Below are positions 1,086-62,134 of a stretch of DNA of 64,000 bases, in pieces. Each line of letters begins with the position of its first letter. The first letter of the stretch is position 1. Position numbers and translations under genes: made by a program. Location: positions 121,272,001 through 121,336,000 of the forward strand of contig OZ024740.1 in assembly GCA_964016885.1 (NCBI GenBank), given 5' to 3'. The notes under the pieces were generated by a model. That model did not search any database. It was not told the origin of the DNA and was given only the letters and a program-made list of their open reading frames with translations. This DNA is from Eledone cirrhosa (lineage: Eukaryota).

Positions 1086-2461
1086 CTTTCTTTATTAACC
1101 ACAAGGGTTTACACAAAGTAAGACATTAAGGACAGTACAGGACAATACAGGACAATACAAGACGGTACAAATGGGCATTTCTGCGTGTAAAAAAAACAAA
1201 AACAGAGGATGTAACAAAAAAAAAAACAATGAAAAATTCCCCAATAGGGAAGAGACTTCCGAGGAACATTCGCGGAGAAAGCCCATTAAAAAAGCCACGG
1301 TGAACCTGATCACCAGGGCAAGTGCCCTCTCCGAGTTTCCCACCTTCAATTTACAGGCACATACTCAGAGTAGGCCCATTTACACAGGCCATTCTTGCCT
1401 CTCTCACCCATCTTTCAACAAAATGCTGGGAAGAGAGCACTTCCCTCTCTACCCTGATTTTCCTTTTCAAATGAAATTTGAAAAAGTTAATCAGAGCATC
1501 ACCGAAGAGGTAAGTGCTCGTCTTCAACCTTTTCAAACGCGTCAACCATACTATCTCTTTCCCCATGGCTACCAGACAGATAAAAACTGCAGCTTTTCCC
1601 GGCTAAAGGAAGAGGACGGGGCAATCCTCACGATGGATTCAGCTGATAGCCGAATCCGTCCTACATGCGACAGTAGGTGTTCGACATAAACCCACAAGTT
1701 AGCAATGCTCGGACCTTGGACGACTGCATGCAGGACGGTTTCGTCACCTTGCGCGCATCTCGGACATACCCGGCTGACAGCACTTCTATGCCTATAGAGT
1801 TTATCCCGAACTGGCAAAGTTCCTTGTAGTACTGCCAGGACAGAGATCTCTGGAAGTTTTCCATAGTTCTTCCGAAGAGATTGGCTAGTTGATTTTTGTC
1901 GACGCTTCCAGTTTCCCCACGTAGGTCCTCGCACTTTCCCTCCACTAATCCTATATAGAACGTCAAGGTGGAGTTTCCACCGATCACAATGCCCGACATG
2001 TCGAGGGCTGTGAGCGCCTGAAGACATTCCAGTTTCCAAGCACTCCCTCTCGGTCTTCGCTTGAGGAAGAGGTGGAGATGTCGTAGCCTGGGCGCGTGTC
2101 TGCGCATCATCAGCCACGGCATGCCCAGCCCTCCACGTAGCGGGTGTTGACAGCAGATGGATCGCCTGATCATCGGAGCGCGCCCCTTCTACAAAAAGCG
2201 AAAGAGTAAAACGCTCCAGCGCAGTCAGGCGAGGCTTAGGACAAGACACGACGGTCAGGCGGTAGTAGATGACGGACGCGATGTACGCGTTAGCCACCTC
2301 CGCTCGACCTTTCAGTGATAGCTTCCTCTCTGCCCATTTCTGGGTGAGAGAAGCCACCCTGCTCGTCACCTCGTCCCGCTTTTTGTCCGTCTGGAGGTCC
2401 GTACCGAACCAGACACCTAGCAATTTAACCGGTCCGTCCGTTCAGCGCCCGACGACGCTCT
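1086..2461 (-). mobile_element. 5'-truncated Tx1/L1-clade LINE (RT C-terminal region + Zn knuckle), frameshifted
   Basis: Motifs LSLKGRAEVAN, GGLGMP and LPVRDKL..CPRC..ETVLH; AATAAAGAAAG 3' end; 19-bp TSD AATGACTATGACAATAATG at 1067-1085 and 2462-2480. Confidence 0.85.
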
Positions 2462-5654: not shown

Positions 5655-5697
5655 ACGATGTACTAGTTTCAAGCTTATTAGCTATCGTCAGCATCGT
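5655..5697 (-). ncRNA. Minimal type I hammerhead ribozyme
   Basis: Reverse complement of the 6215-6257 motif. Confidence 0.9.
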
Positions 5698-6214: not shown

Positions 6215-6257
6215 ACGATGCTGACGATAGCTAATAAGCTTGAAACTAGTACATCGT
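6215..6257 (+). ncRNA. Minimal type I hammerhead ribozyme
   Basis: ACGATG-CTGACGA-T-AGCT-AATA-AGCT-T-GAAA-CTAG-TA^CATCGT; 6-bp stem I, palindromic ACTAGT stem III. Confidence 0.9.
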
Positions 6258-25275: not shown

Positions 25276-27710
25276 CTAGCAGTGGTACCCGGTGTTGCAC
25301 GGGAGAATGTACTTTGGAACGTGGGCCGCCGACAGACCTAATCGTGGAAAAACTGCATGCCTCGACAATATGTAAAAAAAATAAACCGAATACCCTCATG
25401 GCTGGATAATCTTTGAGATTTTCCTCGATGAGGCAGGACAAATGCAGGTTTTCACCTAATGCGGACCCTAGGGCACGAAGAAAATGAATTTTTTTTATGT
25501 GCATAAAATGCCTTGAAATTTCGGGAAAATCGGCTAGACGTAACCCCTACAAAAAGCCCCCAAAAGCTAAAAAAATGAAGTTTTTCACCTAATGCGGGCC
25601 CTAGGCCGTAAAGAAATTAGGGTTTTCTTTGCTCACGGTATGAAGAAGAGACTGACTAATACATAGTTATAATTCCAAGGAAATCGGTCTGATGTAATGC
25701 CTAAAAATGACACAAAAAGCTGAAAAAAACGCAGTTTTTCACCTAATGCGGGCTCTATGGGATCAAAAAAATGAATTTTTTATGTGCATAATACTCCCTC
25801 AAACATAACGCGGGTTGCCAACAGACCTAATCGTGGGAAAAGTGCATTCCTGGACAATATGTAAAGAAAATAAACCGAACACTCTCATGCAATAACTATT
25901 AGGTATGCTTCTCCTTCCACGGGCAGAAAATCGGTTGGTGCTTTTGTACTTTAATAAAGTTGAATGAGTCAGCACGACAGATGTCACCACTTATGTCATT
26001 AGGAAGTCTGCACTCCTTGAGCAACGCATGACGTGCAATCGGACAGGCTTCTCGAAGGAGTCCACCGCACCTTAGTAAGTAAACGCAACTGGACAAACGT
26101 TTACCAAACTGTGGATATAATTTAACAAGTTTAAAGAGGATGGTGCAATAAAATGGGACCCAAGGCGTGTGCGCGTTCACTCGCCTCCTAAACGAAAGGG
26201 TCGCCATCAGCTATTTCAAGGGCTCTTAAAAGGGCCGTGTAAGCCGTTCACTGACACCCCAGTATGGAGGGGTAACCATCAACAATTTCAAGTGGTAGCC
26301 CTAAAAAGGGCCATATGAGTTTTACTTGTAGCCTTAATAGTAACTTTGAGTGCGTTCTCTGACATTTGAAGGAGGATGTTACGGTTGCTTCCACTGGTAG
26401 CCTTTAGAATGAATCAGAAAGCGTTCGCGGTCCGTTTAACAGCCATATAATGACGCGCCGAGTGCGAAGCGCAAGGTCCATCTCTGAAGGTAGTCACCTG
26501 AAGCCGAGGGAAAATGTATTTCAGGTAATAGGCCGTATGAATGGCAACCAGATTGCCTTAAGAAATGTTGATAACGAACCTACCTCGTCCTTGTGCAAAT
26601 GCAAGAAGACTCTCCCAGCTACCAACTCTAGAGCACCCAACAAACAACGATCCGCTTAACGACCTTACATTGCAGCACTAATTGTCAATGGGAAGGTTCT
26701 TAGCTGAAGGGTTCACCTTAAACCGTAGAAAAAACGCATTTCAGTTAGTAGCCCGTACGAATTGCGACCAGATTGGTTTAAGAAATGGCAATAATGAACC
26801 TACCTTGTCGCTGTTACATTTATAACACCTCGTTGTGAACAATGTTCCTTGTTTTCCCTCGTCGTGCAAATGCAAACAGCCTCTCCCTGCTGCCAACTCT
26901 AGTGCACCCAACGTACAATTGTCTGTGGGAGAAGCAGGGCTCCTCCAGTAGAAGTCCGGCCACAGAAAGAGTCTGACCATGGGACTTGTTAATGGAATGG
27001 CAAAACTGACCAGAAGCGGGAATTACAGTCTTCTGAAGGTAATCGGAATTTCGTCTGCCGAGGGAGTAAGAGGAATTCTCGGAATGAAGACATCGTCACC
27101 TTTTCTACACCCAGAGAGGATTGTTGCCTCGATAACATGGTCCGTCATTTTCCTTACAGCCAGGCGTGTTCCGTTGCACAGCCTCGGTGACTCCAAATTA
27201 GTCAGCAACATAACAGGAGTCCCTACTTTAAAGCGTAACATGTGGGGCGGTAGTCCTGGAGGCTGTAAGGAGTTTAGGAATTCTGGTGGAAAGTTCACCA
27301 CTTCATTTGGATCGGGTATCGTGTCAACAGACTTGTAGTTGCGAAGCGTACCAGGAAGGGAATCCAGTAGCAAGTCGTTGAAATTGTTAATAGTGGCGTT
27401 TTTGGGGGCAAGCACTGCTCTTTCGCGAATAACCGGAGGCAGCAGACAGCCAGACATACAGACATATATTATAAGGGCGCGACGTTATATGTATGTATCT
27501 ATCTAAAAAGAGAAAGACTAAGAATTATAGTGAGAGATCGCTCAATCGCCTAATGTGGTCCCTAGGGCATGGAACATTGTAAGGTTTTTTTGCTCAGACC
27601 ACTCCCTGAAACATAAGTATTACATGTGTAAAGTTTGAAAACAGTCGGTTGGATGCTTCTGGAATTTCAGGCATTCAAATTCACACACACACACACACAG
27701 ACAGACATCC
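25276..27710 (-). mobile_element. Non-autonomous Helitron with Pif1-like helicase fragment (about 26970-27430)
   Basis: 3' hairpin CCCGTGCAACACCGGG followed by CTAG|T; PPEFLNSL..GLPPH..KVGTPVMLL.NL..LCNGTRL..IPRIPL; internal CCTAATGCGG subrepeats. Confidence 0.85.
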
Positions 27711-27952
27711 GTAATTCGCATAAAAATATAAAATCAAAACGAAAAAAAATATATATATAAAGAGATATTTTCTTTAGGTCGTTTTGGAAGCCTCAACAAT
27801 GCAGATGGGTAATTCTCCGAGTAGCAAGATCCGGTGGTGAAGAGAGAGATGTAAATGAATGTAGAATTAAATGTATAGTGTGTACGTAGGAAAGAGCGTA
27901 AAAATAAAAATAATAACACGATATAGAGTTATCTTGGGAGAGATGTAATTGT

Positions 27953-27986
27953 CCCTATATTTCGGATTCACATCCATCAACTGGGG
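27953..27986 (-). ncRNA. HHR-like motif with CAGUUGA core
   Basis: Mirror of 30849-30882. Confidence 0.6.
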
Positions 27987-28381
27987 GTTTTCCAGAGGGG
28001 ATGGGGTGAATGTTATCTGTCGGATAGGTGCGATACGTGTCCTCCGCTGTTCGTTGTTTTGAATATCTGAGGTATCCAACAGAGTGCGCACGCGTGTGAA
28101 ATGGGGTCGGTCAAGCAGCGATCGGCAGCCGAAATAGTTCTTTAATTGTGGGAGTGGGGTGGCGTTAGCTGTCAATCGATTGTATTATCTGCCCGTACTG
28201 GTTTCTGTATTAGCAGTGTTGAATAGTGTATGGTGGTGGTAGTATTGCCTGCCTGTTTGGTTATTTCTACTGTGTGTGTGTGTGCGTGTGTTGTTGTCTG
28301 GCTTGTGTGTGTGTGTGTGTGCGTGTGTTGGTGCCTCGTTTGTCAGTATTAGGCGTGTAGTATATTCGTATGGTGGAATGC

Positions 28382-28430
<49 letters not shown>

Positions 28431-30360
28431 CGTGCGTGTGTTTTGTCTCGTTTGTTTATTTAAACCAACCTCCTCTCTCGGATCGGTTATCTATTTGTGG
28501 CCCTAGGCGTTTGATCGAAAGTGCGTCCTTGATTCGTATTGTACCGACGTTTGGTTCCGTCGTTAGAACTGTGATAGTGGGCCTTCCGTCTTTGTTTCCA
28601 CATTTGGTTATGTGTTTCCGGAAAGACGAGGCCCTGGTGTTGATGTGCTCCTTGATCCGGATGTGTAGCGGCCGGATTGTGCTACCTATATAGCAGTGGT
28701 TGCACTGGTTACATTCTACATTATACACTACGTATGTGTGTAGGCAACAGTTCGTATGGCTCATCGGGCAGTTGCTGAGGGAGCACGCATGAATCGATTT
28801 CCCGGGTTTCCTTGAGAGGCATCTTCGCAGGGAGAGGCCCGAGTGGGCCCGGTGGTTGTCGAGGCCCTCCCTCCGTATAGTCTTGCGCATAACGTTTATG
28901 GTATTCTCGCCCAGGTGTGGTATTTTAAGGAAGCACTTGCCTTGGGTGTTTCTCTGCCTCTTGCGTCTGGTGTCTCTTATTCTGTTTGTGAGTGAAGCAG
29001 GGTACCCTTTCGTCTCCAGCACTTTGAGGAATCGCTTCGTATGGGTGACACCACTCGCGGGATCGCTGCATCGGTTTTTAATTCGCGTGATCTCGTTCGT
29101 GATGTACCCTCTTTTAGCACTCTTAAGGACTTTGGACTTGTAGTGGATGAACAGGTCCCTGCAGGCTGCCTTGCGGTAGAAGTTGGAGTGGATCCCTCCC
29201 TGTTCCGTGATATTGATTCGGAAGTCAAGCAGGGCAAGTGACCCTACGTCGCTTGGATGTTCAACACTAAAATCAATGTTCTCGTCCGTGTGGATTAGAC
29301 GCGTTCCATCAGTATATTAACGGCCGGGAGTGCCGGGACTGGACCGTGGTGTAAAGAGCGACTACATCAAGGCTGAAGGCTTACACTGCTTCGGGCTCAC
29401 CACCACTGACATTCACCAACTCCTATCCATCGTCGTTGACAACACATACTTCGGATTTCTCGACCAAACATACCAGCAAACCTCGGGACTACCCATGGGA
29501 TCAAGCCAGTCGGGTGTACTAGCGATCTCGTACAAGGACAGCCTCGAGCGCAAGGCCGTCAACACCTGACACCCCAACGCCGTCGCCTTTTTCTCAAGGT
29601 ACGTGGACGATATCCTCATCCTCACATCTTCCCAAGAGATGGCGAACAGAATCTATGAGACGTTCAACACGGACGAGAACATTAATTTCAGTGTTGAACA
29701 CCGCAGCGACGACGGGTCACTTGCCCTCCTCGACTTCCAAATCAACATCACGGAACAGGGAGGGATCCACTCCAACTTCTACCGCGAGGCAGCCTGCAGG
29801 GACCTTTTCGTCCACTACGTGTCGGCCCTCCCCAACAGTGCTAAAAGAGGTTACATCAAGAACGAGATCACGCAAATTAAAAACAGATGCAGCGATCCCG
29901 CGAGTGGTGTCACACATACGAAGCGATTCCTCAAAGTGCTGTAGACGAAAGTGTACCCTGCCTCACTCACAAACAGAATAAGAGACACCAGACTCAAGAG
30001 GCAGAGAAATACCCAAGGCAAGTGCTTCCTTAAAATACCATACCTGCGCGAGAATACCACCAACGCTATCCGCAAGGATATACGGAGGGAGGGCCTCGAC
30101 ATCCACCTGATCCACTTGGGCCCCTCCCTGCGAAGATGCCTCTCCAGGAAACCCGGGAAATCGACTGACGCGTGCTCCCTCAGCAACTGCCCGATGCGCC
30201 ATACAAACTGTTGCTTACGCACATACGTCGTGTATAAGGTAGAATGTAACAAGTGCAACCACTACTATATAGGTAACACAATCCGTCCGCTACACTTCTG
30301 GATCAGGGAGAACATCAACACAAGAGCCTCGTCTTTCCGGAAACACATAACCAAATGCGG

Positions 30361-30426
<66 letters not shown>

Positions 30427-30445
30427 ACACCCACCCACACACACA

Positions 30446-30491
<46 letters not shown>

Positions 30492-30848
30492 AGCATTCCG
30501 CCATAGGAATATACTACACTGCTAATACAGACAAGCGAGACAACAACACACGCACACACACACACACAGTAGCATTCACCAAACAGGCAGGCAATACTAC
30601 CACCACCACACACTATTCAACACTGCTAATACAGAAACCAGTACGGGCAGATAATACAATGGATTGACAGCTAACGCCACCCTACTCCCACAATTAAAAG
30701 AACTATTTCGGCCGCCGATCTCTGCTTTATCGACCCCATTTCAGCGCGTGCGCGCTCTGCTGAATACCTTATATATTCAAAACAACGAACAGCGAGGACG
30801 CGTACGGATCTATCCGACAGATAAACCTTTCCCCCACCCCCGAAAAAC

Positions 30849-30882
30849 CCCCAGTTGATGGATGTGAATCCGAAATATAGGG
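30849..30882 (+). ncRNA. HHR-like motif with CAGUUGA core
   Basis: CCC-CAGTTGA-T-GGAT-GTGA-ATCC-GAAA-TA-TA-GGG in the PLE 3' pLTR. Confidence 0.6.
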
Positions 30883-31479
30883 ACAATTAAATCTCTCCCA
30901 AGGTAACTCTATCTTGTTCTATTATTTTTATTTTTACTCTCTTTCCTACGTTCTTCTACACACTATACATCTCATTCTACATTCACTTACATCTCTCTCT
31001 TCACCACCGGATCTTGTTAACGGAAAATTAGCCATCTGCATTGTTGAGGCTTCCAGAATGACATAAAGAAAATATATCTTATTATTCCACAATGCTTCAA
31101 GCAAACTTCAATACTCTCTTAATATATATATATCAAAGGTATATATTGAGTTAGAAACTCACAATAGTCACTTACAAATAAAATATCTCTCAGAAAGAGA
31201 TTTTTCCGAGCCGTTTATTCACAATTAATATTGCGAAACAGCACCAAGAGCTGTGTGGGTGATTGGTAGCTACCACAATTCCGGTTTGTATTTATTTTCT
31301 TAATTTTTTCTTAAATTGAGACAGGCAAACCCTATTGTCTATAATTAGTATTCTTTTCCCCTTATCGAATGTGCTCCCTTGCGATTTGAACACATATATG
31401 TATATATCTGTGTTCATTTCAATTATAATATATATATATATATAGATAGATTTTCTACAATACTAAGCGGTAAAATAGT

Positions 31480-34098: not shown

Positions 34099-34631
34099 CG
34101 CACCAGGACTGAACAAAGTCCGATTCACCGTCTTGTGTCCTATTCCCCTCTCGGACTCAACTCACCTCCCCAATATATCTAATACCTCGTCCATTATCAC
34201 ACCCCTAGATTCCTATCGCTTTCTCTTGATCATTAGCAGCTTCTGTTACTAATAATACATACTGATACTCACCCTTATATTAAAATACTTTTGCTCATAG
34301 CTTCAAGCTTACAGGCACACACACTCTTCTACTCACATACATACACATTTCTTCTTAGCTTCGTACGGACCTATAATAACAAACACACAAACTCACGCTT
34401 ATACACGTGCTTCGGTATAGCTCTTTTTACAAAACGTTTTTTTTTTCCATTTCAGGCCATCATCCATTTCGCGCCATCATCCTCTTTTCTAAAAAACAAA
34501 TCATACACAAAACGCAAGCACCAACATTTTGCAAGAGATGTCAACATGAATGGACCAATTATTTTTATCTAAAGACATTTTTTCCAATTCCATCCCGCCC
34601 GTCCCCTCAATCTATTTTATTTATCATTCTT

Positions 34632-34667
34632 TCTTCTGATGAAGGATTAGCGTCCGAAATGTTAAGG
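34632..34667 (+). ncRNA. Minimal HHR (PLE type)
   Basis: TCTT-CTGATGA-A-GGA-TTAGCG-TCC-GAAA-TG-TT-AAGG; probable CpG decay of GAAACGTT. Confidence 0.65.
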
Positions 34668-34756
34668 CCCTCTTCCTGCTATATCAAGCGTTAACCTAAT
34701 ATATACCTTTCATATACTGTACCGATTGTGTTGTTATTTCTGTTTAGCTTTTACTT

Positions 34757-35954: not shown

Positions 35955-36435
35955 CCCATTTTGAAGACCATACGCTATTGTTTTAAAGTAGCGACAATGT
36001 CGCTCTCTGAAATTTTCAGCAAACATGGTGAGATAAGCTTCAAAATGCTTTTAATTAAGCATACAGTGTATTGCGAAATAAACTATATATAGATTCATAT
36101 ATATATCGCTATATCATAGCACCAATTCTAATTTTCAATTTCCGCTGGATCGGCGACCGCTCTTTATAATCAGCTCCTGATTATTTCTGGAATTCTATAA
36201 GAACCCATCACTCATAATTTTCAGCAAACAGGGAGAGTAGTGAGCTTTGATAAGTACCAAAAAGTACGAAACGTCAGCTTATCTCCCCTTGTTTGCTGAA
36301 AATTTAAGTAGGCGACAATGTCTGTACTTTATAACAATAGCGTATGGTCTTCAAAATGCTTTTAATTAAGCATACAGTGTATTGCAAAATACACTATATA
36401 TATATATCGCTATTTCAGACCACCGATTCTAATTA
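35955..36435 (+). mobile_element. Retrozyme-like non-coding element, 311-nt monomer, with 5' inversion
   Basis: 36041 repeats at 36352; about 35955-36039 is the reverse complement of about 36276-36360; ends in (TA)n. Confidence 0.75.
36243..36279 (+). ncRNA. Minimal HHR with U3-A8 core pair
   Basis: AGCT-TTGATAA-GTAC-CAAAAA-GTAC-GAAA-CG-TC^AGCT; stem I extendable to about 28 bp (36215-36304). Confidence 0.8.
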
Positions 36436-41400: not shown

Positions 41401-44400
41401 CTGACACACAGCCTGGTATGTTTCATATTCCACACCATTGATAGTTTTCAAATCAGAGAAGCTCTCTTTACCTCTCGAAAAATCATTATGCCACAAAATT
41501 CGGAGATAAAACACATCACCAGATGCAGGATGGACATTACAAACATGAATCTCAACTTTTGTTTTCAATCATTCCATTTCTTTCCCGTCTTATCCCAAGT
41601 ATAGTACGAAGGGAAATCGCAGTAGAGTTGCCTTTGATCCGGGTTCAATGCATGTTCACTATTGTGCTGGAACCACTCAATCAATTCCGTCTTTGGAGGT
41701 GGTACGTTAGCAATTCTTTCGACACATCTTCTAGTGTCCTGAAAACAGACCATTTGCCTATTCTCTAAGTGAACCATCAGTTTCTGAACGCTGGGTTTGG
41801 GTTCATTGACATCAAAATCGAACAATGTCCAGCAAGCTTCGCTAGATCCAATCGAGCTAACATGCTGGAACCTGCCAACTTCATCTCCTTGGTTCGCCTC
41901 CTCATTCCTGACATTGATCATTGCCCGACCATGACCTTTGTATAGATATTTGAATAGATATTTGCAAGCTTTCACTGAGCTACGCATTTCCACATTAATA
42001 TGACAACGATATTTCATAATCAAATATGGATTGTATGGCACAACCCATTGATTTGTAACCTGTCGACTGTTTACATTTTCGACCAAACCGCCATCTGCAG
42101 GCGACCGTCTTCTGTATGAGGGATGAACATCCCCATCGTTCCAGGAAGAGTTCGTGACAAAAGATGCACGGAAAGTGCTTGCTGCATTGGCCATTTTTCA
42201 TGCAATGCGCTTTCCGATTTGCCACTCCGCATTGGTTGTGCACCATTGACTTTGCCACCACATTGCGTAGTGCCACATTCTCCGGCAGTTCAGCATACAC
42301 AACGCCGTCGACATCCTCAGCACATCCCAATTTGCAATCTCTATGTAAAATCATCAGCAAATGTGCATGTGGCAATCCTCTTTTTGGGAATTCAATTACG
42401 TATGTAAAAGCAACTATAGCTCCAAAGATTACCTCTTTTTCCACATCATCCATTATCTTTTTAAGATATACTTTCAATACTCTTGCCATCATATCAGAAT
42501 GGCCGTTGTCCTGGCAAAAGTGCATCCTTAATATCAGTCCATTCAGGATTGCATGTAACCGTTATAAACAAATCCGGCTTTCCAAACTTTCTCACAATAG
42601 CCATTGCATCCTGATAGCGACGATGGCAAAATGATGCGTCGACCAATTTGCTTGTAATTGGCATCATCGGCTGTTATCGCATCCTGTATATTATTATACA
42701 ATTCAGCTCTGATATGTTGCTGATGTGTAGCTATATAATTTGGCCTTTGATTTCCGATCTTTGCGAATGCCATACAACAGTATTCCTGGAACAGTCTGCT
42801 GGCTTGAAATAGCGGATTTCTCTGTTGATTCCTCTCGTTCAAATGGAACGCGTAAAAATCGCGAATCGAATTATTGTGTCTATTGCCGCCTCCCTGTTGA
42901 TGCTGATTCTCATGATCATCTAAATGAACAGACATGTTCCATCAATTTCCACCTTTTCGGAATAAAAGAACATAATGCAATGGATCGTATGCCTTATTTG
43001 ACTCATTTATAGTCTTGAGACCACCATCTCTGCGATTGAGGTCGAAATCTATCGATTCAGGCTTATCGTCCATCAACACAGCAACTTCACGAAATCCTTC
43101 AGGGGCATTATATCGCCGTTCGTGTTGATTCCTAGGCACTGCGTCAGCCTTAATCACCAATGTTTGCTGCTGAATATTTTGCAGTTCAGCCACCAACATG
43201 AAATCCATAACATAAGGATTACACTGTCTAAGTCATGATTGTAAATTACGGATCAAATCACTTAACCTTTGCCGTTCAAATTTAGTTATATTTCCCGGCA
43301 ACTTCATCCAACTGATCCTGCTATCCTCCTCCGATTCACTATAATCTGGATCGTTAACATAAATTTGAGAGAATTGAGACCTCTCTCCTGGGGTAACTTC
43401 TAAATTATCGATACAATGATACAAACGGCCTTGATTGACTACATTCGGTGCCCATGCCCCACTCTCAAACATCTCACTACTCTCTGCGATGCTAAAGCTA
43501 ATGAATTGATAATTTGCCGCGAATACTTGCGTAGTAATCTACCTCGGTATCCTTGATCAACCCACATACATAATATTTTAAACTCCGGTGATTCCTCATC
43601 ATCCGGCATTCGCAAGGGTTCTAGTTGAACTGCTCCTTTATGACAGCACATTGTGGTCCACATCTTTTCGTGCCTCCAAAGCAATGCTCCACAATGTAGA
43701 CACTCTGCTCGTCCACCAATCTCAAAATGACACGGTTGCCATGATCCATTTTTAATATCATCCGTTCGCCTTCTAGCCTTTATTGGAATGAGGAGCACTT
43801 TGGCGACACATTCTCTGGACTTCTGTATTGTGCTGGCACCATTCAGCCAGCTCCTCTTCATCCATCGCAGCACCCCGTTGTTGCTGAATTCCGACCATCT
43901 GCTGATGATGATAAGCCAGTTAGTCTTCAACCATCGCAGCACGCCGTCACTGCTTGGCTCCAGTGTTTCGTTGGCGTTGTTCAGCCAGGTCCTCTTCATT
44001 CATGGCAGCACGTCTTCGCCTCTGAAGTTCGGCGTTCCGATGGCGCCGTTCGGCCCGTTTTTCTTCATTCTTGGCTGCACGCCGTCGCCGCTGTAGTTCA
44101 CTGTTTGATAAAGTCGAATTGCTTTTATTATCAGTATTCATTTCGAGCAATTGTCAAAAAATGTCCGTCAATGTAAAGAAAGGTCTCTATTTACTCCCTT
44201 TACAACTCTGTGTATGTTAGACTGACAGACATGCACACAGACAGATAAACTGCATGGCGATTGTGGAACGCCCCACGTACACACACACATACACGCATGG
44301 AAACGCGCACAGGCACGCAAACTTACACACGCACCCGTGCACTTACGCATACGCACACAATCACACATGTTGATAGTTTTAACTTTCTATGGAACGCTGC

Positions 44401-44716: not shown

Positions 44717-46904
44717 TTTACTTTTAACTAATCACTTATATCAGAATTGTAGATATTCAGTTTTAGCAAACTCAATTTTGATACATTTAACAACTCATTA
44801 TGATGTTTATAGTAGAAATCATTATTATATTTACATAACTACTTATCATAACATATTTACCGTTCTAATTATTTAGAAATGGTTTCTCCTTTTTATACCT
44901 CATTACATTTATAACATCTATCCTCTTTAAGCGATTCATCGTCACGTTAGGCTGGCGTTCGGACAGAGACTACTATCATAAACTATTTAGCACCATCACT
45001 TGTTTAAACAACACGCAAATATTTCTGGTTAATAGCGTAGCATTATGTCGCCCCAAGCAACCCGACCCCTTCTTGATCACGCCAACGAACCCACAATGCT
45101 TAGCTTTGCGGCGGGTGTGGCATTTAGAGGTGGCTAATCATAACATAAATGGTGTGCCGCCTCCGTATCCAGTCTAGTTTCTTGTTATGTCTATGGTTTA
45201 GATTTGATAATTACTTTCTCTGCTAACAAAATATCTATGAAATTTCCAAAACTGCATCAAATAGGTCACGTTGTCTATTTCAGACCGAAACGATAATCTT
45301 TGGGGTCTTCGTTGCTGGTTTTCCTTTCATTTTACATTTCTTTTTATATTTCTCTCCCGCTTTATCCGCTTTCTTCCTACTGGCACTTGATTTTGTTATA
45401 CGGAGATTTATCCATCTGCTTTGTCGAGGCTCCCAAAAACAACAATTTTTCTTATTCCACAATGCTTCAAGCAAACTTAAACACTTCCGTTAATTATGTT
45501 GAGAAAAAAGGAAGGCGTGAAATAACATCAGTCGTGTGGTGAATATTCATGAACGGGAATTAATACCTTTTCTTATATGAATTCGAAAGCAATTCTAATA
45601 TTAGTTTCTAGAAGCAAAAGAAAAAATAATTATGAGATTATTCGATAGCAGAATCAGAACAAAGGCTTTAAGGAATATCTCTTTGAAATCCCCCAAAATA
45701 AATTTCTTTGAAATCTTGTAGGGAGAGAGAAAATACATTAAAACTATTCCGAAGGAAATGCAAAATTTAGCTTGCCTTCAAAATTAATTCTATTTTAATA
45801 AAAGAAATATATATTTATAAATTGGTATAAATTATATAAAACGAATCAAATATAATGCATTCATTTTGTTTTAATTTGTCACACATTTTGTATATATTTC
45901 TTCATTTAGAAAGCCGTATGAGACATTTGAATAACATTAGGCTTCTTTATAGGATCTAATAAACCATACGCCATCTACTTTATCCTATCTGTCTTTCTAT
46001 TTTGACTTTTGCACCATCACACTCCATATTATCAATGAGTCATCTAAATTATTACAGCACGAATTAAATAAAGTCTCTCGAGTGAAGGAGGCCTCTGGGT
46101 ATTACTATATACGCTCAGGAATGAACAGTTTTGAAACGACGTTAAAAATGAGTTTATGAGAATTTACACTTGAAAGGGACTTTCCTCTCAAAGATCGGAC
46201 ATTGAAATAAGTTCGTCTTTATTAATATATTCTTCCGACCACCACTTCATGGATTACCCACACGCAGAATTTGACTTACAAACAATCTACTAACATCCTT
46301 GGAACTTACCAACTTTTCAACCATCCTCTTGCGTAATCACCTATATAACTCACCCGCAAATACACCCCCAAACATTTTTTTTCTCCACACGCCACCCACA
46401 CCCACAACACGCTCAAACCCCACACACACGTGCTTCCCACCACATATTTACACCCTCAGCCTCCTGATTCCTCTCCCCCCACCCCCTATCCACACACGCA
46501 CAGACACTCCGAACCACAAACCCCCCCACACACACACCCCTTCATGAACATGCAACCCCGTTTTTCCCCCAACCCTTACTTTCACATACACACACGCACA
46601 CCTACACACACACACCACATTCAGCCCTCCCCGCTCGGACACCCCGTCTCCTTCTCCCCACTCCACCCGTCACCCCCGTTACTCACCCCCCACCCTTCCA
46701 CCACCTGTTTACCCCCCTTTTAATTTCAGTTTATTTTGATCATGCCTTTATTTTTAAATTTTCTCATTCCTTGTATTTTGATCATGCTTTATTTTTATTT
46801 TTTATCTTTATTTGTTTTTTTTTCATTCGCACCGTTTCCTTTCGCTATATGTCTCTCCACCACTCCCCTACACACCTTTTGAACTCTGTTCCCACACACT
46901 TCTC

Positions 46905-46936
46905 ACCTGAGGAAGGGCTTATGCCCGAAACGTCGT
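46905..46936 (+). ncRNA. Minimal HHR (PLE type)
   Basis: AC-CTGAGGA-A-GGGC-TTAT-GCCC-GAAA-CG-TC-GT, about 90 bp before a (TA)n end; stem I is short. Confidence 0.75.
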
Positions 46937-47024
46937 CCCATACTTACCCCCCACTCTCCTGAGCGTGAAATTAATAAACATTTATTGTACTGCCTCTCTG
47001 ATTTGTCCCTGTTCAAATTTTTCC

Positions 47025-55245: not shown

Positions 55246-57513
55246 TTATATGCATTTAAAAAAAGAAAAAGTCGTTTTCAAACGATGGTTACAGTATAGA
55301 GAACGTTCAATTTTGCTGTTCAAAAGTTTGTTTACCGACGTTAAAATGCAGTATATCTCTAAATTGCATAACTTGTAGAATCGATGATTTTGCTGATATG
55401 CAGGCGCAGCTGCAATAATTTGCCAATCAAGGGAGAACGCTTGATTGTTCCTCCGAAGCTGCCAGGCTTTATCGGCGAGGGTTGTTACGGAGCGCATTTT
55501 CTCGTGCCTGATCGAAGATCGATGTTGGTATAGGCGAGCCTTGAAAGAAGTTGCGGTACATCCGACGTAATACCATTTGTTGGTCCCGGAATTTATTGTA
55601 CACCGGTAGACAATATTGCGTGCTAGGCACTGGTTATTCAGTGGGCACGTACCTGGTTTGGTGCAGTTACAACTATTTTTATGTTTTGCAGTAGAATCCT
55701 GGATAGTTTGGTGGGGTTGCGGTTGTGTGTTAGTGCGTTGCATGTTGCTATGCTGGTGCCCTGAGTCATTAGGGATGTACTTATTCAGTATTGCTGAGTT
55801 GAGTTTTCTAATTAGTTGTTCTATGTTAGGTGCAGTGGAGTATGAGAGTCTAATGGTGCGCGAGTTAAAGATTTTATAGTATTTATGTGAAGTTGTAAAG
55901 TGTTTATTGATTAGTGTATAGAATTGTGAGATAATCTTAGTGCTAATAGAAGAATTGTACACGGGGTTATACCATATGTACTCTCTACGTCTGACTCTAT
56001 TTGCTGGTTTGCACCTGTTAGTATGCCTATTGATGTGTGTGTGTGGTGCAATACTAGTTCGACTTAGATGTGTTTTATTCATAGTACTTATGTGGTTATC
56101 GTCTAGATATTCAATTTTCTCGCAGTAACCAGCTTTTCTAAGTGCGTCATTATAATATTCAGCATGCTTGTTGAAGGTCTGCAAATTAGACGACAGTCGG
56201 GAGATCCTTATGGATATATTTTTAGGGATAGATTTAATAATGGAATGAGGATGGTTCGATTTTACATTAACGTACTTAAGATTTTCATTAAGTTTGTGAA
56301 ATGGCTCTATATTACCGTTATTAAGGTTGAAGGTAACATCCAAGAAGTTGACCACCTTAAGATTGTGTTCAAAGGTAATATTAAGCCCTAGTTCTAAGAA
56401 AAGTTTCCTAATGTTTTTACGTCGCCTTTCTAGGTTTTGTTTGTTCATATTCTTGACTAATAGAAGTGTATCGTCGCGGTATATTCCGCCGTGGAGGTCC
56501 GTAAATTCGCTCTGGAGTCTATGGGCTATATAGATCCCAACCAAATCCGTGACCTCCGCCGAATCATTAGAACCCATCGTAATGTCGAATTCCGAGGGTC
56601 TATCCCTGCGAACCCAATAACTATTTTCAAAGTGCACTACTGTGCGTCTAGCTTCAAGTATAATATTAATTTCCTCGTTTGTGAGGTCCGAGTTAGTCTT
56701 AGCGAAAGAGAGGGCCTTATGCAGGGTTTCGGGTGAAATAAAGGAATAGTATTCATCTATATCGAATTGAATAAAATAAGATTTGTTTTTGTCCCTAATG
56801 TTATTGAACCATCTTATTGCCTGATGAGTATTATCCCATAATTTAATATCTACCTTAGCCTTAACTTGGGGGATAATACGATCTAATATGTACTTACTAA
56901 TCTTACCTATATCGGACTTTGAAGGACATATTAATCTAATTTTAGGGTTAGTATCGAAGTTATCCTTATGGTCCTTCAGATTAAAAGTCGGTGTAGCTGG
57001 GGATAGGGGTACCGTTCTGTCGTCAATTTTCAGTTTCCTAACAATATCACATGCTGCGTTATTAATGTTGGTTAGTGTAGTTGCGTTTGTTTTTTTGTAT
57101 TTCCTATGTAATTCCTTACGTATCAAATTGTTATATGTTTCTACATCCAGGGTGTATAGATTCGAAGTTTTGTCTGCCTTTATGATAATTCCTTTGGTAT
57201 TCCTTAGGTTGTTGAGTAGAGTTTTAATATCTCGTTGCAGTTCGTTTTTCCTTCCATTTGTAAATTTGATTCCGGTTATCATTTTCATTAAGTCCTGTTC
57301 GAAAGAATCCAAAAGAGGGTTAGAGGGTGGGTTTTTGTAGGATTTGAAACCAAACTTCTCGTTGTTGGTGTCCGAAGTTTGTGTAATCCTTTTCCGATCG
57401 AAGTGGAAGGCCTTCCATCTAATCCGCCGAATAAATTCGTTGGTCCTTTGTATCATACCAAGAATGTAATCCTTTTTACCCTGAATGGGTATGTTTTTTA
57501 AGGAATACCACAA
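55246..57513 (-). CDS. PLE reverse transcriptase + C-terminal GIY-YIG endonuclease (755 aa open frame)
   Basis: FIQFDI, ITMGS.DSAE, GIYRDD and VNFLDVT RT motifs; CNCTKPGTCPL linker; NIVYRC..YYVGCT..FKARLYQH endonuclease; likely true ATG at 57527 is 1 nt out of frame. Confidence 0.93.
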   Translation of the reverse strand: MWYSLKNIPIQGKKDYILGMIQRTNEFIRRIRWKAFHFDRKRITQTSDTNNEKFGFKSYKNPPSNPLLDSFEQDLMKMITGIKFTNGRKNELQRDIKTLLNNLRNTKGIIIKADKTSNLYTLDVETYNNLIRKELHRKYKKTNATTLTNINNAACDIVRKLKIDDRTVPLSPATPTFNLKDHKDNFDTNPKIRLICPSKSDIGKISKYILDRIIPQVKAKVDIKLWDNTHQAIRWFNNIRDKNKSYFIQFDIDEYYSFISPETLHKALSFAKTNSDLTNEEINIILEARRTVVHFENSYWVRRDRPSEFDITMGSNDSAEVTDLVGIYIAHRLQSEFTDLHGGIYRDDTLLLVKNMNKQNLERRRKNIRKLFLELGLNITFEHNLKVVNFLDVTFNLNNGNIEPFHKLNENLKYVNVKSNHPHSIIKSIPKNISIRISRLSSNLQTFNKHAEYYNDALRKAGYCEKIEYLDDNHISTMNKTHLSRTSIAPHTHINRHTNRCKPANRVRRREYIWYNPVYNSSISTKIISQFYTLINKHFTTSHKYYKIFNSRTIRLSYSTAPNIEQLIRKLNSAILNKYIPNDSGHQHSNMQRTNTQPQPHQTIQDSTAKHKNSCNCTKPGTCPLNNQCLARNIVYRCTINSGTNKWYYVGCTATSFKARLYQHRSSIRHEKMRSVTTLADKAWQLRRNNQAFSLDWQIIAAAPAYQQNHRFYKLCNLEIYCILTSVNKLLNSKIERSLYCNHRLKTTFSFFKCI

Positions 57514-57734
57514 TGATGTTTTTCCATTTCAAAGACGCGGGTTGATAGGTTGCTCGACTGTAAAGGAGTGTGAAGAATTAGATAATTTGTATTCCAATGT
57601 TACTAAGTAGTTGCATTGGATGGAGTCAACTGACGTCAGAGATTGCTCAACGTATAATAAAGTGTGTTTTAAAATCCGGAGAAAATATGGAGAAAAAATT
57701 TACGAAATGGAAATGCGGGTATATAGAATTTATT

Positions 57735-60075: not shown

Positions 60076-60079
60076 TATC

Positions 60080-61018
60080 TTTAAGTCGTTAGAAAGCCTC
60101 GACAATGCAAATGGGTAAATCTCCGGGTAACAAGGTCCGGTGGTGGAGAGAGAGATGTAAGTGGGTGTACGTTTAGATGCGTGGTGTGTATAATATGTGT
60201 GAGATGTGTAGAATGAAGGGAAGAGTATAAAGGATAAAAATAAAAATAAAAATAACAACACAAGGGAGAGTTACCTTGGGAGTGATTTAATAGTCCCTAT
60301 ATATTTCGGATTCACATCCATCAACTGGGGTTTTTTCCGGGGTGGGGGAAAAGGTTGTCTGTCGGACAACTCGGAACGCGTCTTTCGCTGTTTGTTGATT
60401 TGAATATCTCAGGTATTCGGCAGAGCGCGCGTGCGCGTTAAAATGGGGTCGGTCGTACAGAGGTCAGCGGCCGATGAGGCAGTGGGATGGCGCTAGCTGT
60501 CAGCCCATTCTCTGCCTGTTTGTTAAATGTTACTGTGTGTGTGTGTGCGTGTGTAGTTGTCTCGCTTGAGTGTGTTGTTGTCTTGTTCATCTGTATTGGC
60601 AGTGTAGTATGTTCGTATGGTGGAATGCTACTGTGTGTGTGTGCGAGTGTGTGTGTAGTTGTCTCGTTTGCGTGTGTGTGTGTGTGCGTGTGTTGTGCGT
60701 TGTTGCATCGCTTGTTAACTTAAATCAGCCATTTGATTTCGCTTCTCTCTGATTGGTTGTTTATTTGCGGTTGCAGTCGTTTGATAAAAAGCGCTTCCTT
60801 GATACGTAGCGTGCCGACGTTTCTTTCAGTCGCTAGAATTGTGACAATGGGCCTTCCGTCTTTGTTTCCGCATTTGTCTGTGTGTTTCCGGAAAGACGAG
60901 GCCCTGGTTTTAGTGTGTTCCTTGATCCGGATGTGCAAAGGTCGAATTGTGCTACCTATGTAGTATTGGTTGCACCTGTCACATTCTATCTTATACACGG
61001 CGTATGTGCGTAGGCAAC
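60080..61018 (-). mobile_element. 3' fragment of a Penelope/Poseidon-type PLE, sister subfamily of 27.8-31.1 kb
   Basis: VYKIECDRCNQYYIGSTIRPLHIRIKEH..FRKH..EALFIKRLQPQIN; pLTR homology; (TA)n flanks. Confidence 0.88.
60295..60330 (-). ncRNA. HHR-like motif with CAGUUGA core
   Basis: CCC-CAGTTGA-T-GGAT-GTGA-ATCC-GAAA-TATA-TA-GGG. Confidence 0.6.
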
Positions 61019-62134
61019 ATATATATATATGTGTGTGTGTATATGTGTTCGGGCGTGTATGTGCTTGCTCTACATATTATGACTTGATTTATATCATACT
61101 ACAGCCCAAGATGTTATTAGATGAATGAAGAGAAAGTGATCGTATTTGATATAGTAAATACCCACAAATCAGAGCTGACACATCGTGAGAGATAAAAAGA
61201 AATCTGTTATGTGAGAATGAATGTCGCCTTATTTTCTCTGATGAGAAACTTGGCTTGCAAGTAAAGTTAATTATGTTTTAAATGTTCTGAAATCTTATTG
61301 GCAATGCGATATGTTATTATTATATCAAAATATTATTGTGCAATAACAGTACTTCAGAATAAAATGAAACGTGTTGAAACCAGTTGAAATCTACGATAAA
61401 TTTTCAATGAAGGTTCAGGCTGTCTGGAATTGTTACTTTGATTAGTGTGTATTGTAATTATATCTACATTTTAAAATGGTTTAAAATCTTACCCTGTTAT
61501 GTGAAATTGAAAAAAAGAAGCTGAAAATGCTGCTGAAGGAAAGAGAATTATATTCATGTTTCCTTAAGAGCACAACTCCTTAATCTTTGAACGTTAAATT
61601 CTAGTGTGAACTTTCAGGTTAATAATTCAATTATCCGAATCCTAAATTGAATCTAAGTTTATAGGCTGTGTGCCAAAACACTAGGAATCAGTTTCAAATG
61701 AAAGAGCCATTCATATACGGAAAATTGCAGTGTAAAATTATTCAAATTTGTTCCAATTTCTAGCGATATTTCTTATGTCATTAAATGCATTTATTTTAAT
61801 GCAATGACGTTCCTACGTACACCAATATTAAAAATCTGTGTATGTCTTCCTCATTTTCTCCTACGATAAATCTCTCTCATTTACACATATTCAAAACTAT
61901 ACATAATCACATACACAAATATATTTGTTTATTTAATATACATTTTCAGATACAGCCGTATTCCTTATAGAATGAGTACTCTAGAACACATTCTTTAAAA
62001 CAGCACTTCTTACTTTATGGGAGATTGATGACCGAAATATTGAACGTAAAGTATTCTCTGTTCAGTTTATATTCTATCTTTTGTTGAAAGTTCAGGTTCC
62101 TCCCAGTATAATTCTCAAACAATGTTAATATATA

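Follow-up and report, generated by a model that had tools for sequence, protein, structure and literature searches.

Minimal hammerhead ribozymes have been described in the pseudo-LTRs of metazoan PLEs (PMC4209133), and the accessible part of that report presents them with a short helix I, a G10.1-C11.1 pair, an extra base after A9, a palindromic helix III and a dimer-type design, all of which recur in the motif analyzed here. According to the sections of PMC11167929 available to us, cleavage by a PLE hammerhead depends on the protein of the element, the uncut RNA is the main substrate and catalytic mutants were inserted normally in vitro. As for the core, natural hammerheads with a single U4C or A6C change retain low activity (excerpts of PMC3088659 and PMC7151607), and the inactive examples in the excerpts of PMC3088659 include RNAs with divergence in more than one position. 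A complete pairwise mutation scan of a hammerhead gave low activity for every single or double mutant in the CUGA turn other than the C-G swap, and strong positive epistasis was absent (available part of PMC9901934). Here we describe a hammerhead-like motif with the altered core CAGUUGA, found in a 64,000-nt stretch of the Eledone cirrhosa genome (the window).

The motif and its host element

From its sequence, the segment at positions 30849..30882 of the forward strand reads as a variant type I minimal hammerhead motif (subfamily A1). CCC, the 5′ strand of stem I (30849-30851), is followed by the core CAGTTGA (30852-30858), an extra U (T in the DNA; 30859), stem II with its GUGA loop, GGAT(GTGA)ATCC (30860-30871), GAAA (30872-30875), a TA palindrome (30876-30877), U16.1 (30878), A17 (30879) and GGG, the 3′ strand of stem I (30880-30882); the predicted cut falls at 30879/30880. 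An identical sequence is present on the reverse strand at 27953..27986, and a third copy, of subfamily A2 (60295..60330, reverse strand), is alike except that TATA replaces the TA palindrome. Re-reading of the window bears out the three positions given in the initial annotation and the replacement of the canonical core by CAGTTGA at each of them; the TA palindrome that it assigned to all three stands at the first two sites and is TATA at the last. A loose hammerhead pattern matches the window four times against 1.17 expected, a count reached by 7 of 100 shuffles and hence near chance; the three sites, however, are copies of one repeat and have complete stems.

Directly after the motif lies the block TTAAATCTCT (30887..30896, +), which is common to family B and of which TTAAAT is found also in young copies of family C (both families are described below). 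About 23 nt past the predicted cut there is a sequence resembling a splice donor, AAG/GTAAC (30900..30907, +), which occupies an equivalent position in families A, B and C; no GT..AG joint was found in the contigs of four public runs from one study, and contigs cannot show RNA ends. The Rfam hammerhead covariance models gave no window match among the best 150 of 160 rows (E up to 5), a result which says little because they missed the canonical-core motifs of other window repeats as well. Such canonical-core minimal hammerheads are seen at 34630-34670 (+), 46900-46940 (+), 36240-36282 (+), 5667-5691 (-) and 6221-6245 (+), and one canonical-core window motif has a U3-A8 pair (TTGATAA at 36247).

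The sites at 27953-27986 and 30849-30882 are located in the two arms of one inverted, 5′-truncated unit, which lies between (TA)n runs and has a tail at one end only. The forward arm (29381..31119, approximate boundaries) is a 5′-truncated, decayed PLE consisting of the RT C-terminus, a cysteine linker, GIY-YIG, the 3′ UTR and the pseudo-LTR; it ends in the tail, with the first codons of the ORF (ATG at 31092), and then a (TA)n run. The inverted arm (27760..29380, -, approximate boundaries) is likewise 5′-truncated, has no tail, and shows 78% protein identity to a full-length copy; its range also takes in a short inverted RT piece at about 29295-29380. The A2 motif belongs to a separate 5′-truncated insertion between (TA)n runs (60077..61019, -, approximate boundaries). 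Full-length tandem copies of families A (L031) and B (L215) carry the motif in both pseudo-LTRs, on either side of the RT-GIY-YIG ORF, and in L031 the order is motif, AAG/GTAAC, pyrimidine-rich spacer, ATG, RT, cysteine linker, GIY-YIG, 3′ UTR, motif and tail. The initial proposal of a hammerhead-derived motif in the pseudo-LTR of a PLE is supported. In addition, families A, B and C have in common a block TGCATTG...GGCYT (about 31033-31052, +, in the window), located 40-60 nt before the ATG within a spacer that is otherwise not conserved; the block may be a protein-binding or priming signal.

The element has the traits of endonuclease-positive PLEs, namely a single ORF with RT plus a C-terminal GIY-YIG bearing CCHH, and copies in tandem or inverted order with the tail at one end; the Pfam GIY-YIG match on the window arm (E = 0.0014) is below the curated cut-off. 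All 38 aligned proteins have cysteines C560, C565 and C573 in the linker, and both the linker, C-x4-C-P-x5/6-C, and the motif SDKGKEF match by eye the Nematis rows, not the Poseidon rows, of PMC8557442. In the part of that source available, the Nematis clade shares with our element an RT with C-terminal GIY-YIG, a short cysteine linker, an SDKGxEF-type motif and (TA)n-adjacent insertion; compared with the Nematis linker CX2-5CxxC, the spacing fits by eye but the element is one cysteine short, the third being missing. In a quick tree of 52 proteins (the three families together with 34 homologues out of 120 listed, 14 loci from metagenomes and one Hydra-type ORF), families A, B and C fall in one clade with linker-bearing proteins of Haemonchus and Ancylostoma (SH-aLRT 99), and linker-less proteins fall outside it. 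The nearest named protein relatives come from Octopus bimaculoides (53%). We regard the host element as a Nematis-like PLE, an assignment based on a tree that contained no curated Nematis sequence. Its initial designation as Poseidon-type has to be dropped, since the linker cysteines, which Poseidon does not have, SDKGKEF and the grouping with nematode proteins rule out the Penelope/Poseidon clade.

In the viral contigs we found no PLE and four weak RT matches. Elsewhere in the window, a 760-aa open frame (55246-57528, -), with inverted partial copies nearby, contains the RWK and DKT motifs that have been described in Hydra-clade PLEs. In a database protein of Octopus bimaculoides (P0057), which may be a gene-model artefact, the C-terminal portion of a related PLE is fused to a long region of host-like sequence (Pfam PF05672). 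Open frames at 27023-27484 (-) and 41565-43999 (-) of the window resemble Helitron helicase and Rep fragments.

Core variation in families A, B and C

The frequency comparison proposed in the initial annotation came out wholly for the variant. In the 3.0 Gb searched, the exact 24-mer with CAGTTGA has 2,599 copies (reversed control, 0), and the canonical core CTGANGAN on the family A stem II has 0. With the core left free, 2,690 matches were obtained; among the 100 listed, 86 have CAGTTGAT and the other 14 scattered changes, with U4 or A6 in none. No alternative core letter at 2% or more is listed in the contigs of the four public runs (one study), where the changes listed within the motif are GUGA to GCGA, a one-base loop insertion and TA to TATA. 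The pattern [CT]TGAN[GA]A...GAAA has no match on either strand of one full-length family A copy and two in one full-length family B copy, both in the coding region and stemless by eye. The CAGUUGA motif is real and family-wide. The three window copies share one variant ancestor, and therefore represent one origin rather than the two independent observations first counted.

Patterns for other versions of stem II gave counts at control level (17 versus 20 and 3 versus 6), and only L057/L058 (family B) and L099 (family A) among their matches could be placed in this clade. Two GGGC/GCCC copies from an alternative-stem II pattern led to family B, which is represented by no fewer than 40 near-identical copies (40 of 988 candidates were scored). 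Families A and B have 68% protein identity and are identical at 86 of 200 four-fold sites, their silent sites being near saturation. In the family B motif the core is CCGUUGA, GGGC/GCCC replaces GGAU/AUCC and U17 replaces A17; relative to A, U6 is kept, position 4 is C, two stem II pairs are compensated and all other core bases are the same. CCGTTGA was found in 37 of 38 motif-bearing family B arms (30 partly overlapping loci), the remaining one, the query, having CAGTTGA.

Family C was discovered with a protein probe, and a second protein probe led to it again. It has 57% identity to A (four-fold sites identical, 56/161), long open frames, some of them intact ORFs, and the motif CYGAAGA-A-GAGAT(ATT)ATCTC-GAAA-AT-T-A-AGG at the same position as in A, with 3,710 matches genome-wide (control, 0). 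Among 100 matches listed, position 4 is U in 32, C in 67 and A in 1, and A6 is present in all 100; the full canonical core thus occurs in about a third of the listed family C copies and neither in A (A4, U6) nor in B (C4, U6). Because family C combines A6 with both U4 and C4, it links the family A motif to the canonical hammerhead. On a tree of 33 of 121 extracted family C copies (built without short or duplicate rows, with young copies reduced to 10 and with position 4 masked; root not fixed, CpG decay possibly adding scatter), the U/C label at position 4 requires four to five changes, at least two of them forced by well-supported branches, and a young C4 group with intact ORFs is nested among U4 copies. 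A4 with A6 is seen in two older remnants (L289 and L332). U4 and A6 occur together in three metagenome relatives of the same protein clade (L102, L103 and L105), and the PLE-like motifs in 83 metagenome and viral loci are all U4/A6 apart from one twice-listed poor match.

This comparison of families and metagenome loci indicates that the canonical core is the ancestral state, that A6U became fixed a single time, prior to the divergence of A and B, and that position 4 varies freely. Since the relatives show U4/A6, C4/A6, A4/A6, C4/U6 and A4/U6, a compensatory swap can be ruled out, and U4A and A6U, initially treated as a unit, are not a compensatory pair. We also rejected the idea that CAG is a splice acceptor restoring the core, as B has CCG and U6 would remain.

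Several further sequences were encountered. L061 (~4136, +) and L062 (~4295, minus-strand count) have CAGTTGA-T-GG...CC-GAAA with TA-rich palindromes, lie outside families A-C and are possibly remnants of further families. CAGTTGATGTTGGAACTCGAAAAAT, which accounts for the majority among 100 matches listed out of 1,912 (control, 354), was discarded because it lies, without stems, in the coding region of an unrelated non-LTR ORF. L105 has at about 2105-2150 (+) the core AUGAGUA, with an A3-U8 pair replacing C3-G8 and a 5-bp stem I. In L333 and L288, of a diverged family C type, ~20 nt are missing between the motif and the donor-like site, with the ends joined at a repeated AGG, and the family B inverted pair L076/L077 has a TTAGGG repeat run at its 5′ junction. 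Finally, a 42-nt tandem repeat (L258-L287 and L295; G000 C1 15.9-16.3 Mb and C2 11.05 Mb) mimics a hammerhead, with CAGYAGA, a GTCT(TCAG)AGAC hairpin and GAAA, and may be a coding minisatellite.

Constraint, folding and possible cleavage

Families A and B are identical at 29 of 36 motif columns, compared with 43% of silent sites. The seven differences fall on two compensated pairs in stem II, on positions 17 and 4 and on the outer base of stem I. The 11 invariant core columns (C3, G5, G8, A9, G10.1, C11.1, G12, A13, A14, A15.1 and U16.1) are all spared, which has P = 0.058 with random placement and 0.43^11 = 9e-5 under full neutrality. The motif has the G12 A13 A14 A15.1, U16.1 and H17 of minimal hammerheads: position 17 is A, U or C, and G in none, of eight own-genome representatives, and in 8/8 of these the stem III insert between A15.1 and U16.1 is self-complementary (TA, TATA or AT). 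Helix I is short and helix II is closed by G10.1-C11.1, with the two compensated pairs between A and B as covariation; family C shows further stem II changes, and its 1.1-2.1 pair changes from G-C to A-U. The extra nucleotide between A9 and G10.1 is U in A and B and A in C.

Within family A we compared 78 full-length pseudo-LTR copies, counting variants as shared at 8% or more and excluding the poly-C tract. Shared variants were found in 0/33 motif columns versus 45/254 flank columns (P = 0.004, or 0.04 when the GCGA-loop subfamily is counted), a contrast that is inflated because motif patterns had served to select about half of the A loci. The motif is more conserved than most of its flanks, so that neither of the two outcomes named in the initial annotation as refuting it holds. 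Its core positions show scattered changes (minor fraction 0.017). On the other hand, the 27 columns 3′ of the motif are equally invariant, with a shared variant in 1/27. Given the motif-based choice of loci and these downstream columns, the constraint applies to the region and not to catalysis as such. Moreover, A and B share U7, the extra U, the GUGA loop and TTAAATCTCT, bases which have no catalytic need, and the constraint may be non-catalytic for this reason. Overall, the pattern suggests that purifying selection acts on the RNA fold. A conserved peptide from the ATG at A9 was ruled out, as A1 and B have stops and the ATG is absent in C.

Stem I pairs a run of C with GGG, and a one-base slip sets position 4 against position 17. 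With U4 in family A (A17), the predicted U4-A17 pairing is 0.97-0.98 and the in-register stem I 0.01-0.02, the latter rising to 0.42-0.46 with A4/U6. In family B (U17), A4 is predicted to pair with U17 at 0.96, leaving in-register stem I at 0.05, and only two intact B motifs with A4 were found genome-wide; C4 gives an in-register value of 0.62, while the canonical U4 has the best predicted fold (0.88) yet is not used. In family C, with its A-U 1.1-2.1 pair, no slipping is predicted. U4 misfolding is thus a possible reason for A4 in family A, within a post hoc comparison of three families and an energy model of limited precision for folds of this size; it does not account for the absence of U4 from B. 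U6-U7 is predicted to pair with A14-A15.1, and in none of four contexts tested is a double-hammerhead dimer the predicted minimum-energy dimer.

Our preferred reading, to which we assign a probability of about 0.5, is that of a slow ribozyme cutting after A17, likely only as a dimer or with the protein of the element. The motif would derive from a canonical hammerhead, with A6U arising in the common ancestor of A and B; A4 would be tolerated or favored because U4 would pair with A17 on a one-base slip of the CCC/GGG stem I; selection would keep the hammerhead register; and slow cutting may be sufficient, or favored, if new copies of the element arise from RNA that has not been cut. The copies sampled nearly all extend through the predicted cut site. 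Against this reading, 5′ junctions show no defensible excess there: among 122 alignment starts in family A, one lies exactly at the cut (L015) and one 4 nt before it, and there are 0/25 in B and 0/73 in C, in a sample that is small and biased. Alternatively, A6U could have switched the motif off in the A/B ancestor, the fold being retained as a signal for binding or packaging by the element's protein, or for the processing of RNA next to the donor-like site. We hold this for a real, if tentative, possibility, and the two options of the initial annotation, an attenuated ribozyme and a non-catalytic fold kept by selection, both stand as the leading explanations. Loss of cutting would agree with the low activity of CUGA mutants without rescue (available part of PMC9901934), with in vitro insertion that does not need cleavage (available part of PMC11167929), with the conservation of non-catalytic bases and of the 27 nt downstream, with 5′ junctions that do not pile up at the cut site and with the predicted U6-U7 pairing; it accounts less well for the persistence of all 11 core columns where silent sites have diverged almost to saturation and stems and position 17 differ, for the choice at position 4, in either expanded family, of a base that avoids a pair with position 17, and for the kept palindrome. 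Published mutagenesis argues for low activity of the altered core. We find it doubtful that CAGUUGA/CCGUUGA, in which both uridine-turn letters are replaced, is a working core thanks to rescue by the GUGA tetraloop, by the UUAAAU strand downstream or by the protein of the element. If it does work, the limits of the hammerhead core would lie beyond those that mutagenesis suggests, a class of retroelement ribozymes would escape the standard descriptors, and the lineage would offer a natural series of alleles (U4A6, C4A6, A4A6, C4U6, A4U6) bearing on the role of the PLE hammerhead.

Two other explanations are improbable. The core could have changed through overlap with an internal promoter of the element, selection acting on the DNA. 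CCAGTT is similar to an initiator, and GGACA to a downstream promoter element. Position 4 is 47-52 nt before the donor-like site, and the start site of Drosophila Penelope lies 46 nt before an intron, in an internal promoter with a DPE (PMC2377424); however, the corresponding sequence is CCCGTT in family B and TCCGAA or TCTGAA in family C, the TATA subfamily changes the spacing by 2 nt, and the compensated stem pairs indicate RNA structure. Even less probable is a dead, unconstrained relic, in which one master copy lost the ribozyme and later copies inherited the loss. The window copies are indeed decayed and have one common ancestor, and the scattered core changes in the 78 copies are as expected after insertion, but the identity of A and B in the motif relative to silent sites, with its two compensated pairs, largely refutes such a relic, and within A shared variants are fewer in the motif than in the flanks.

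Comparison with known hammerheads

We regard the motif as a real and constrained variant of a known hammerhead, with cleavage as a prediction from sequence. Unlike the minimal hammerheads of PMC4209133, where the available part describes U3-A8 as the only core change, its core is CAGUUGA or CCGUUGA, and its helix II is 4 bp with a GNRA loop. Positions 4 and 6 are altered also in the viroid U4C and phage Bcep176 A6C ribozymes, of low measured activity in the excerpts cited above; in contrast to these single variants, both positions are altered here, position 4 to A or C and position 6 to U, within a minimal fold with no known tertiary contacts that is fixed in thousands of copies. The Anolis Poseidon hammerhead (available sections of PMC11167929) is likewise a PLE pseudo-LTR motif, and its ATG at the start of stem II is found also in A and B; that hammerhead cuts with protein, whereas cutting is only predicted here. 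The stem II ATG of our motif opens no conserved frame, with a stop after 9-10 codons (A1, B), and the start of the main ORF lies about 200-260 nt downstream of it.

No A4/U6 or C4/U6 hammerhead was found in the literature and supplements searched, which include the accessible parts of the reviews PMC6765202, PMC6155905 and PMC12192606 and of PMC11014351; Lünse 2017, likeliest to list such variants, one Cervera file and figures fell outside this search. The available part of a preprint (10.64898/2026.07.22.740005) contains nothing on hammerhead cores. Three related families have expanded in one genome, and among them the core is canonical, changed at one position or changed at two. If the changed motif is active, the known core would be widened; if inactive, the fold would be kept for a purpose other than cutting, and the system bears on the role of hammerheads in PLEs. 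PLE hammerheads and single core variants were already known; what appears new here, against the literature searched, is the double variant, with positions 4 and 6 both changed.
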